NCBI GenBank assembly: GCA_963733055.1
Contig: CAVTBR010000003.1
Span: 512,001 to 576,000 of the forward strand
Direction of reading: 5' to 3'
Length of the DNA stretch: 64,000 nucleotides
DNA from: Candidatus Bathyarchaeota archaeon
GTDB lineage: Archaea; Thermoproteota; Bathyarchaeia; 40CM-2-53-6
Made by a program: the position numbers and the translations under genes. Position 1 is the first letter of the stretch. Each line of letters opens with the position of its first letter. Shown here in pieces: positions 33,835-34,926 of the stretch. Below the pieces are notes generated by a model that searched no databases, had not been told where the DNA came from, and was given only the letters and a program-made list of their open reading frames with translations.

Positions 33835-34774
33835 CTACTTCCTCTTGCGGAATAGCATTGTTTCCTCTGGGGTAGTGGTTACGTATTGGTAGCCTGCCTC
33901 AATTAGTGGTGTGGCTTCTTTCACGTCCTGAGCTGCTTTCACAGTATACTCTTCTTCCGCCGCGAAGTCTACCATTCTGGTATATCGAACCGTATTGGAT
34001 AGCGATCTGTGCCCTAGCTGTCTCTGCACAAAGAGAATGTCCTTGGTTTGCTCGTATAATCTGCATCCGTAGTAATGCCGTAGGCTCTTTAGTGATATCA
34101 GGTTCAAGCGAGGTTGATTGAGTTTCATCGAGGCTCTTCGCCTCTGGAACATGTACTCATTCCTGAATCGTCTAGAGGTTTTGTAGAAGTCAATTCTAGG
34201 ATTCCGGAAGATGTACGTCGGCCATTTCTTGGGTAGACTATTCAGTAGGCCAGTCAGCCTGCTGCTAACCTTCATCTGCCGTGCATTGGAGCCTTTCAGG
34301 GGGGTTATGGTCACATGGTTGTGTTCTGTGTCAATGTCTTGCCATCTGAGGCTTAGGCCTTCACCAGGTCTACATCCCGTTTCTTTGAGAAGTAGACAGT
34401 AGACCGACATCTTTGGGCCTAGGCAGGCTATCAGGTCGTTTACCTCCTGAGTATTGGGTACAAAAGGGAGAATGTCTACTCGATTGTAGTGGGGTTTAAT
34501 CCACTGAATGTTCTTCCACTTGTAGAAGCGGTCTAAGTCTTCGGTTATCTTCTCTTTACGGTTGATGGAAGACTCTGCTCTAGCCAGGTATGTTTTCGCT
34601 GACTCGGGGTTTAACAGGTTGGCGTTGTGTGCTACGGCTTTGAGGGTGTTTACTGTTCCTCTGATTGTGGAGTCTCTGTATCCTTCCTTCTGCATCCAGA
34701 AGGCGAAGACCCCAATCTCAGCGAGGGTAGTGGGTTCGTTAAATGGTGGGGCCGGTGGGATTTGAACCCACGAC
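33835..34774 (-). CDS. Int(C): catalytic portion of the split tyrosine integrase (internal ATG at 34695)
   Basis: ETGCRPGE, PLKGS, KSLRHY, QLGH, VRY; frame open upstream through att (SWVQIPPAPPFNEPTTLAEIGVFAFWMQKEGY). Confidence 0.9.
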
Positions 34775-34926
34775 CTCTGGCCCTGAGACCTTTCATTTCT
34801 TAGGGACGCCAGCGCCCCAGGTTGACCGCACGCATAAGCGCTCTGGTATCCTGTTGGCGGAAATCGTGTTCCCAGACCAAGTTGTCCAGAGAGGCAACGC
34901 CTTCTTCTCTTCTAGACGACGGCCCC
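34744..34926 (-). tRNA. tRNA-Pro(GGG) with four non-canonical introns and encoded CCA
   Basis: Exons 34926-34912, 34881-34874, 34852-34843, 34821-34807 and 34774-34744 join to a 79-nt cloverleaf: GGGGCCG TC GTCT AGCTTGGTCTA GGAT A CCAGC CTGGGGC GCTGG CGGTC GTGGG TTCAAAT CCCAC CGGCCCC A CCA. Each intron has BHB-like junctions. Confidence 0.92.

Follow-up and report, generated by a model that had tools for sequence, protein, structure and literature searches.

Evidence for a tRNA-Pro(GGG) gene interrupted by four non-canonical introns in the Bathyarchaeia

Archaeal transfer RNA (tRNA) genes are credited with up to three introns in the tRNAscan-SE 2.0 paper (PMC8450103), and according to the same source several non-canonical bulge-helix-bulge (BHB) introns can occur in one gene of the Thermoproteales (Pyrobaculum, Thermofilum, Caldivirga). 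A bioRxiv preprint of October 2026 on Asgard archaea (10.64898/2026.10.13.758758) gives a mean of 2.2 intervening sequences per tRNA gene and up to five in one, cites Pyrobaculum calidifontis as the richest genome of the Thermoproteales, with 1.54 introns per gene, and does not mention Bathyarchaeia in its main text. In three Asgard genomes, introns were reported in 92–95% of the tRNA genes, with more than half of the genes carrying several (Valentin-Alvarado et al., PMC11291895). The locus described here lies in a window of 64,000 nucleotides (nt), the whole stretch of DNA analysed (positions 512,001 to 576,000 of contig CAVTBR010000003.1, assembly GCA_963733055.1), from the genome of a Candidatus Bathyarchaeota archaeon (G000). 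It occupies window positions 34926–34744 on the minus strand and is very probably a real tRNA-Pro(GGG) gene with four introns, the likely sole Pro(GGG) gene of this genome and a working chromosomal copy. An earlier note, made from the letters of the DNA alone, had read the locus as a tRNA-Pro(GGG) interrupted by four non-canonical BHB introns, the canonical 37/38 position being free, and this reading was upheld by re-derivation, by conservation, by compact relatives, by the program ARAGORN and by the encoded splicing machinery. The archaeal maximum of three introns quoted in the same note, which is the one stated in PMC8450103, is outdated by the figure of five in the Asgard preprint.

The gene is made up of five exons (15, 8, 10, 15 and 31 nt) and four introns (30, 21, 21 and 32 nt) at positions 15/16, 20b/21, 30/31 and 45/46, with tRNA positions given in Sprinzl numbering. 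Intron sequence accounts for 104 of its 183 nt, the 37/38 position is uninterrupted and the CCA end is encoded, at 34746–34744. In the lines below, H is the central helix of each motif, and all features are on the minus strand.

34952–34967, minus strand: promoter-like block, with a purine-rich element resembling a B recognition element (BRE) and a TATA-like TTATTATGA, 26–41 nt upstream of the gene start
34912–34926, minus strand: exon 1, tRNA positions 1–15 (5' acceptor strand, U8, C9, 5' D-stem strand, A14 and G15)
34882–34911, minus strand: intron 1, 30 nt, at 15/16; motif HBh', H GTCT/GGAC, bulges AGA and AAC, inner helix of 5 base pairs (bp)
34874–34881, minus strand: exon 2, 8 nt, positions 16–20b (D-loop with G18 and G19)
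34853–34873, minus strand: intron 2, 21 nt, at 20b/21; H TGGT/GCCA, bulges CTG and ACA, 4-bp inner helix GGAA/TTCC
34843–34852, minus strand: exon 3, 10 nt, positions 21–30 (A21, 3' D-stem strand, A26 and anticodon-stem bases 1–4)
34822–34842, minus strand: intron 3, 21 nt, at 30/31; H TACC/GGTC, bulges AGA and AAC, 4-bp inner helix
34807–34821, minus strand: exon 4, 15 nt, positions 31–45 (anticodon loop CUGGGGC with GGG, 3' anticodon-stem strand and positions 44–45)
34775–34806, minus strand: intron 4, 32 nt, at 45/46; H CTGG/CCAG, bulges CGU and AGG, 4-bp inner helix CCCU/AGGG
34744–34774, minus strand: exon 5, 31 nt, positions 46–76 (end of the variable loop, T arm, 3' acceptor strand, A73 and CCA)

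Excision of all four introns in silico restored a canonical cloverleaf. The computed product, 79 nt long with the encoded CCA included, has stems of 7, 4, 5 and 5 bp: an acceptor stem GGGGCCG/CGGCCCC, a D stem GUCU/GGAU closing an 11-nt D-loop with G18 and G19, an anticodon stem CCAGC/GCUGG with the loop CUGGGGC, and, after a 5-nt variable loop, a T stem GUGGG/CCCAC with the T-loop UUCAAAU (GTTCAAATC); U8 and A14 are in place. The anticodon GGG at positions 34–36 of the 7-nt loop, U33, G37 and the discriminator A73 identify a tRNA-Pro. Together, these are presumably proline identity elements. The exons are colinear and all five lie within 183 nt on a single strand, which sets the locus apart from split and permuted tRNA genes. 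From the sequence alone, the boundary of intron 4 could lie at either of two adjacent positions, a G standing on both sides; BHB geometry set it at 45/46.

All four introns were found to be bounded by BHB motifs of the same construction. In each, the four exon bases that precede the last two bases of the exon pair with the four intron bases that precede the last two of the intron, forming a helix flanked by two 3-nt bulges, each to be cut after its second base, and an intronic helix (h') of 4–5 bp then closes the motif. Inspection by eye revealed an exonic outer helix (h) of at least 2 bp in none of the four motifs, which therefore fit the relaxed HBh' type and not the strict hBHBh' type. A single structure accommodates all four motifs along with the acceptor and T stems, no base being used twice, and scores −54.8 kcal/mol. 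A group I or II ribozyme core was not indicated: the introns measure only 21–32 nt, and Rfam at gathering scores gave no matches in the window.

The arrangement was recovered by a scanner of our own, a depth-first search over BHB-bounded excisions combined with cloverleaf rules, which starts at a 5' acceptor strand, ends at the complementary strand, tries every chain of excisions between the two and made no use of the coordinates in the earlier note. Its best solution was 15/16, 20b/21, 30/31 and 45/46, with a score of 41.3. On a reversed-genome null, with 498 of 533 candidates examined, only two gave any solution, the best scoring 28.4. The four-intron arrangement is more than a chance pattern. 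The coordinates, the lengths and the four central helices of the earlier note all proved correct when re-read from the sequence.

Natural relatives that lack the insertions are the independent check on the junctions. The uninterrupted 15|16 sequence (GTCGTCTAG followed by CTTGGTC) has no exact match in any of the 23 genus genomes, of which G000 is one; with at most one mismatch it is present in 18 of the 22 genomes of a sister genus (g2), and it was matched in 65 of 105 genomes of the order, among them most of the other families. Of all the genomes searched, those of this genus were the only ones to contain intron 1. In the other genera of the family, 24 genomes have a three-intron gene (20b/21, 30/31 and 45/46), as does one genome of another family (G087, f9), and the three-intron gene of G065 is 76/76 identical to the spliced G000 product. 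Two genomes of family f8 (G031 and G039) carry only introns at 37/38 and 59/60 and are uninterrupted through positions 1–37 and across 45/46, their mature sequence being 69/76 identical to the spliced G000 product; the 20b/21 position, empty in these two, is occupied by unrelated sequence in other genera. Since some natural relative reads across each junction, each of the four stretches is an insertion at exactly the predicted base. Elsewhere in the order, all 13 Pro(GGG) genes examined from family f2 carry introns at 20b/21, 30/31, 37/38 and 59/60, with the same set in G036 (f5), and the gene of G030 (f7) has three introns, so that the other families of the order range from two to four. Six intron positions are used by Pro(GGG) across the order, and four-intron Pro(GGG) genes occur in at least 32 genomes, in two different arrangements. 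The history of the present gene would be that of a three-intron gene of the family (20b/21, 30/31 and 45/46) to which a fourth intron at 15/16 was added in this genus.

These comparisons bear directly on the possibility that only some of the insertions are excised and that one or more, for example those of the D-loop, are retained as an enlarged loop. Such stretches are hard for software, and tRNAscan-SE is said in the 2026 preprint to leave D-arm insertions in 'mature' Asgard tRNAs; furthermore, the ideal BHB of intron 1 is not adopted in the minimum-free-energy fold of the precursor. Against this, all four insertions share one geometry, in which an inner helix accompanies a 4-bp helix with its two 3-nt bulges, and relatives free of each one depart from the gene precisely at the predicted junction. 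A retained pair would, in addition, give a D-loop of 62 nt, which is incompatible with the tRNA fold. Retention is thus judged very unlikely, and excision of all four introns is the reading followed here.

Conservation within the genus was evaluated by a BLAST search of 40 relatives for full-length orthologues. These were found in 18 of the 23 genus genomes, with 82–100% identity; the five genomes without one are 67–93% complete. All 18 orthologues resolve as four-intron genes, 17 in one run and the remaining one (G020) under relaxed rules, the scanner placing the fourth intron at 42/43 in two of them (G006 and G010). In the alignment of the 18, varying columns number 4/79 in the exons (0/15, 1/8, 0/10, 2/15 and 1/31 for exons 1–5, respectively) against 52/109 in the introns (19/31, 1/21, 11/24 and 21/33 for introns 1–4, respectively). 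Standard pairs occupy 99.1% of the 810 cells of the combined BHB, acceptor and T-arm structure, versus 32–47% with the partners slid, and in the inner helix of intron 4 three pairs have changed on both sides (compensatory, 13 cells). Intron 2 is near-invariant across the 18 genomes, its 6-nt loop included, the single varying column being a T indel; in introns 1, 3 and 4, by contrast, the loops show free variation. Upstream, the flank is syntenic in 17 of 19 loci, while the downstream flank is common only to G017. Over the 70 nt upstream of the gene the mean column identity among the 18 is 62%, and the only invariant columns (12) fall in the block TGAAAG.TT.TTATGA, which we take to be a putative archaeal BRE/TATA promoter from its position relative to the gene. 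A 20-nt signature covering exon 1 and the start of intron 1 matched 17 genome-collection records, 14 of them titled as metagenome-assembled genomes (MAGs) of Candidatus Bathyarchaeia or Bathyarchaeota. The other three contigs (L036, L046 and L050) stand under the bacterial names Actinomycetales, Acidiferrales and Acidoferrum and are probably mis-binned archaeal contigs.

The earlier note had called for a check for another Pro(GGG) gene in the genome, and none was found: BLAST gave no second full-length match in G000, the compact Pro(GGG) junction pattern had no match there, and only one GGG solution above the null emerged from the scanner passes of the tRNA census described below. The gene lies next to an integrated island of 18.8 kb (15886–34743), situated directly 3' of it and delimited by a 31-nt repeat identical to exon 5, with the following features:

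15886–15916 (G000 C3:527886-527916), minus strand: direct repeat of exon 5, 31 nt, an attachment-site-like far boundary, 100% identical to gene positions 153–183
33835–34695, minus strand: tyrosine integrase directly downstream of the tRNA gene, given as context only (PF00589, 69.6 bits, E 3.6e-19)
18362–19324: second tyrosine integrase of the island
30334–33435 and 29033–30331: type I restriction-modification system of the island, HsdR and specificity subunit, respectively

The repeat starts exactly at the boundary of intron 4 and exon 5, and no 5' part of a tRNA was found upstream of the copy at 15886–15916. The island also carries a PIN-domain protein, a NucS-like protein and a DnaJ-domain protein. 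A third, partial copy of the repeat (29 nt) lies 24.7 kb further on, just outside the window (C3:503170-503198), and suggests a second tandem island beyond the first.

A position abutting an integrase and an island, a locus that standard callers fail to recognise and a compact tRNA-Pro(UGG) elsewhere in the genome (C2:460492-460566) would all suit a decaying pseudogene at an integration hot spot, with the CCC and CCU codons read by another tRNA. A decaying copy would hardly keep near-invariant exons while its introns drift, with the intron helices still pairing, and purifying selection on the exons is already seen in the counts given above. All 18 orthologues give a full cloverleaf after in silico splicing, the promoter-like block is conserved and no other candidate for Pro(GGG) turned up in G000. 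A pseudogene is accordingly regarded as highly improbable, and the locus is treated as a functional gene in what follows.

The prediction that standard scanners may miss the gene held for ARAGORN and for the Rfam tRNA model. ARAGORN reported no tRNA genes in the window under default settings and, with the intron option, miscalled the locus as tRNA-Glu(ctc) with a 103-nt intron; given the spliced product, it called tRNA-Pro(ggg). The Rfam tRNA model reached 21.7 bits at the locus against a cut-off of 29. With an E-value threshold, Rfam gave only sub-threshold matches in the window, the best being the transfer-messenger RNA (tmRNA) model RF00023, which spans exactly 34744–34926 (30.1 bits, E 2.6e-10). 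The chance that the locus encodes some other RNA, tmRNA-like or element-borne, or is an assembly chimera is exceedingly remote in spite of this full-length best match, as the score is below the gathering score of 47, only the acceptor and T arm are aligned, neither a conserved tag-peptide reading frame nor pseudoknots were visible in the inserts, ARAGORN reads the spliced product as a normal tRNA, and the same gene, with conserved upstream synteny, is present in 18 separately assembled genomes.

Several points weigh against a four-intron gene that is fully spliced. Transcription, cleavage and ligation of this tRNA are steps that we infer. The scanner places boundaries by BHB, so its support for the BHB motifs is partly circular. 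All four motifs would depend on an enzyme of broad specificity, because none shows an exonic outer helix. The central helix of intron 3 has one U-C mismatch in G000 (3/4 pairs), a position that is U-G in 15 of the 18 orthologues (4/4 pairs). The minimum-free-energy fold of the precursor, at −72.7 kcal/mol, contains similar hairpins in shifted registers, the shift being most marked at intron 1, where the 5' bulge AGA is able to pair with UCU; enzyme binding would therefore have to select the BHB register. Finally, the genus offers little covariation, as 31 of the 45 pairs stay constant throughout it.

The splicing machinery encoded by the genome would suit relaxed motifs. Two EndA paralogues were found, of 185 and 188 amino acids, each with an N-terminal and a catalytic domain; they lie in the regions C3:228623-228877 and C1:1338756-1338995 of G000. 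The first, catalytic one is closest to chain B of the Aeropyrum pernix EndA (3p1z_B; 179 residues aligned, E 3.6e-39), and its K39 and K41 align to K44 and R46 of the specificity loop of that enzyme. The crenarchaea-specific loop and K44 are reported to confer cleavage of non-canonical and relaxed motifs (PMC3241643). The resemblance to the A. pernix system (PDB 3P1Z; PMC3241643) thus covers the catalytic subunit, the K44/R46 loop and a gene for a second, non-identical subunit; it differs in that the best solved relatives of the second subunit here are not the A. pernix beta chain, and activity and assembly are predicted. RtcB is also encoded (576.8 bits). The EndA pair with its specificity-loop lysine and RtcB would together make up the host machinery expected for such introns.

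In the pathway proposed, the gene would be transcribed from its own BRE/TATA-like promoter into a precursor of about 190 nt, in which the last six bases of exons 1–4 and the intron following each, where the motifs stand in the sequence, would fold into local HBh' hairpins. A crenarchaeal-type heterotetrameric EndA would cut both bulges of each motif, RtcB would join the ends, and four rounds would yield a standard 76-nt cloverleaf with its encoded CCA. The earlier note held that ordered splicing is probably required, but the motifs give no ground for this: a BHB draws only on its own intron and on six bases at the end of the preceding exon, and none waits for another. As the four BHBs are independent and share no base, they impose no splicing order. 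Each intron would nevertheless probably be cut and ligated in turn, because double cutting would release the 8- and 10-nt exons 2 and 3. Ectopic and multiple BHB introns also interrupt nuclear tRNA genes of a eukaryote, the red alga Cyanidioschyzon merolae, with the D-loop and T-loop among their sites, and reverse-transcription PCR demonstrated sequential processing in that alga (PMC3728597); there, at most three introns are reported per gene and some genes are permuted, whereas the exons are colinear here.

The gene is one of many interrupted tRNA genes in this genome of 2.88 Mb, in which the Rfam tRNA model gives only 13 matches above its cut-off. A census was made in three passes. The first, seeded on T arms and run without a null control, separated about 16 good genes from noise, including five Leu genes with two or three introns each, and misses genes with T-arm introns or weak motifs. 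The second used CCA-anchored candidates under strict rules (668 of 724 examined; best null score 28.4), and the third used relaxed rules on candidates of up to 224 nt (291 of 430 examined; null 176 of 198, best 26.3). The strict and relaxed passes gave 25 genes with scores of at least 35, above the best of the nulls; Leu(TAA), from the strict class-I pass, is counted among them, and the other four Leu genes are left out. The census covers class I tRNAs and, of class II, Leu alone, with genes of weak motifs searched up to 224 nt. ARAGORN accepted all 25 spliced products with the expected anticodons, and the CCA is encoded in all 18 genes checked, two doubtful solutions excepted. The 25 genes hold 55 introns (about 2.2 per gene), at least one in 23 and at least two in 17. 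About 20 expected anticodons were not found in this partial census, including Pro(CGG), Ser, Trp, His, Asn, Asp, Gln(UUG) and initiator Met; the census being incomplete, 55 introns in 25 genes is a sample and not a full count. Five reconstructed genes have four introns. Those other than Pro(GGG) are scanner predictions above the null from G000 alone, with the products accepted by ARAGORN:

C1:1348212-1348413: Tyr(GUA), introns at 30/31, 37/38, 53/54 and 59/60
C1:1437747-1437903: Glu(UUC), introns at 10/11, 20b/21, 37/38 and 59/60
C3:209273-209426: Gln(CUG), introns at 21/22, 29/30, 37/38 and 53/54
C3:18265-18433: Gly(CCC), introns at 6/7, 8/9, 15/16 and 45/46

When 30 introns were locally aligned all against all, the best score was 10 and no shared intron family emerged. 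A 15/16 intron was also observed in tRNA-Gly(GCC) (G000 C1:343234-343392; loci L104–L132), only in G000, G019, G013 (three copies) and G016; the site is uninterrupted in 13 further members of the genus, three of which keep only a 45/46 intron. It starts with AAGA and ends with TGGACAA, as does intron 1 of Pro(GGG), and its interior is unrelated. The exon context of the two introns is the same (GTCTAG, then CYTGG), and their first four and last seven bases are alike; these shared ends may reflect common descent or merely the shared exon context. Two loci (L066 of G059 and L069 of G062) have Pro(GGG)-like bodies whose first 6–7 bases are not a 5' acceptor strand, with C in place of U at position 33 in L069; their acceptor stems could be interrupted by an intron, or the genes could be split or damaged. 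L070 and L074 were rejected as not being tRNA genes, and L077 is cut by a contig end.

The closest likeness is to the Asgard archaea. Many non-canonical BHB introns, often in the D arm, occur in both and are missed by standard callers; the load is similar, with 2.2 per gene and a maximum of five reported in the Asgard preprint versus 55 in 25 genes and five four-intron genes here; and repeated lineage-specific gains have taken place in both lineages, both of which come from soil or wetland. The Thermoproteales share non-canonical BHB introns and, as predicted here from the sequences of the two EndA paralogues, an (alpha-beta)2 enzyme with the crenarchaeal loop. They differ in their reported maximum of three introns per gene, against four in at least five genes here, and in having intron families shared between tRNA types, of which none was detected among the 30 introns. 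The present lineage, Bathyarchaeia by its record titles, is distinct from both and belongs to another phylum than the Asgard archaea. No paper on tRNA introns of Bathyarchaeia was found in a literature search of limited coverage. The four-intron kind is already known, four or more having been reported in Asgard archaea; the lineage and its lineage-wide load appear undescribed.

The evidence tips slightly in favor of this order of Bathyarchaeia being a third independent and so far undescribed center of extreme tRNA-gene fragmentation, after the Thermoproteales and the Asgard families, in which gain is ongoing. In a lineage of the TACK group (Thaumarchaeota, Aigarchaeota, Crenarchaeota and Korarchaeota) that is common in peat and soil, tRNA genes with four introns have become fixed and are conserved, at a time when peer-reviewed texts still give three as the archaeal maximum per gene and only the 2026 Asgard preprint goes higher. 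The intron load of this genome matches the Asgard extreme; heavy interruption of tRNA genes would therefore be no Asgard peculiarity tied to eukaryote ancestry, and would have arisen separately where an EndA of broad specificity exists. The tRNA counts by which these MAGs are judged are probably too low, because such genes are overlooked or wrongly labelled by ARAGORN and by the Rfam tRNA model. The series of two-, three- and four-intron genes and the polymorphic Gly(GCC) intron offer dated gains for studying how introns arrive and, if the order is indeed such a center, presence and absence differences between close relatives would make the entry of BHB introns into tRNA genes directly testable.

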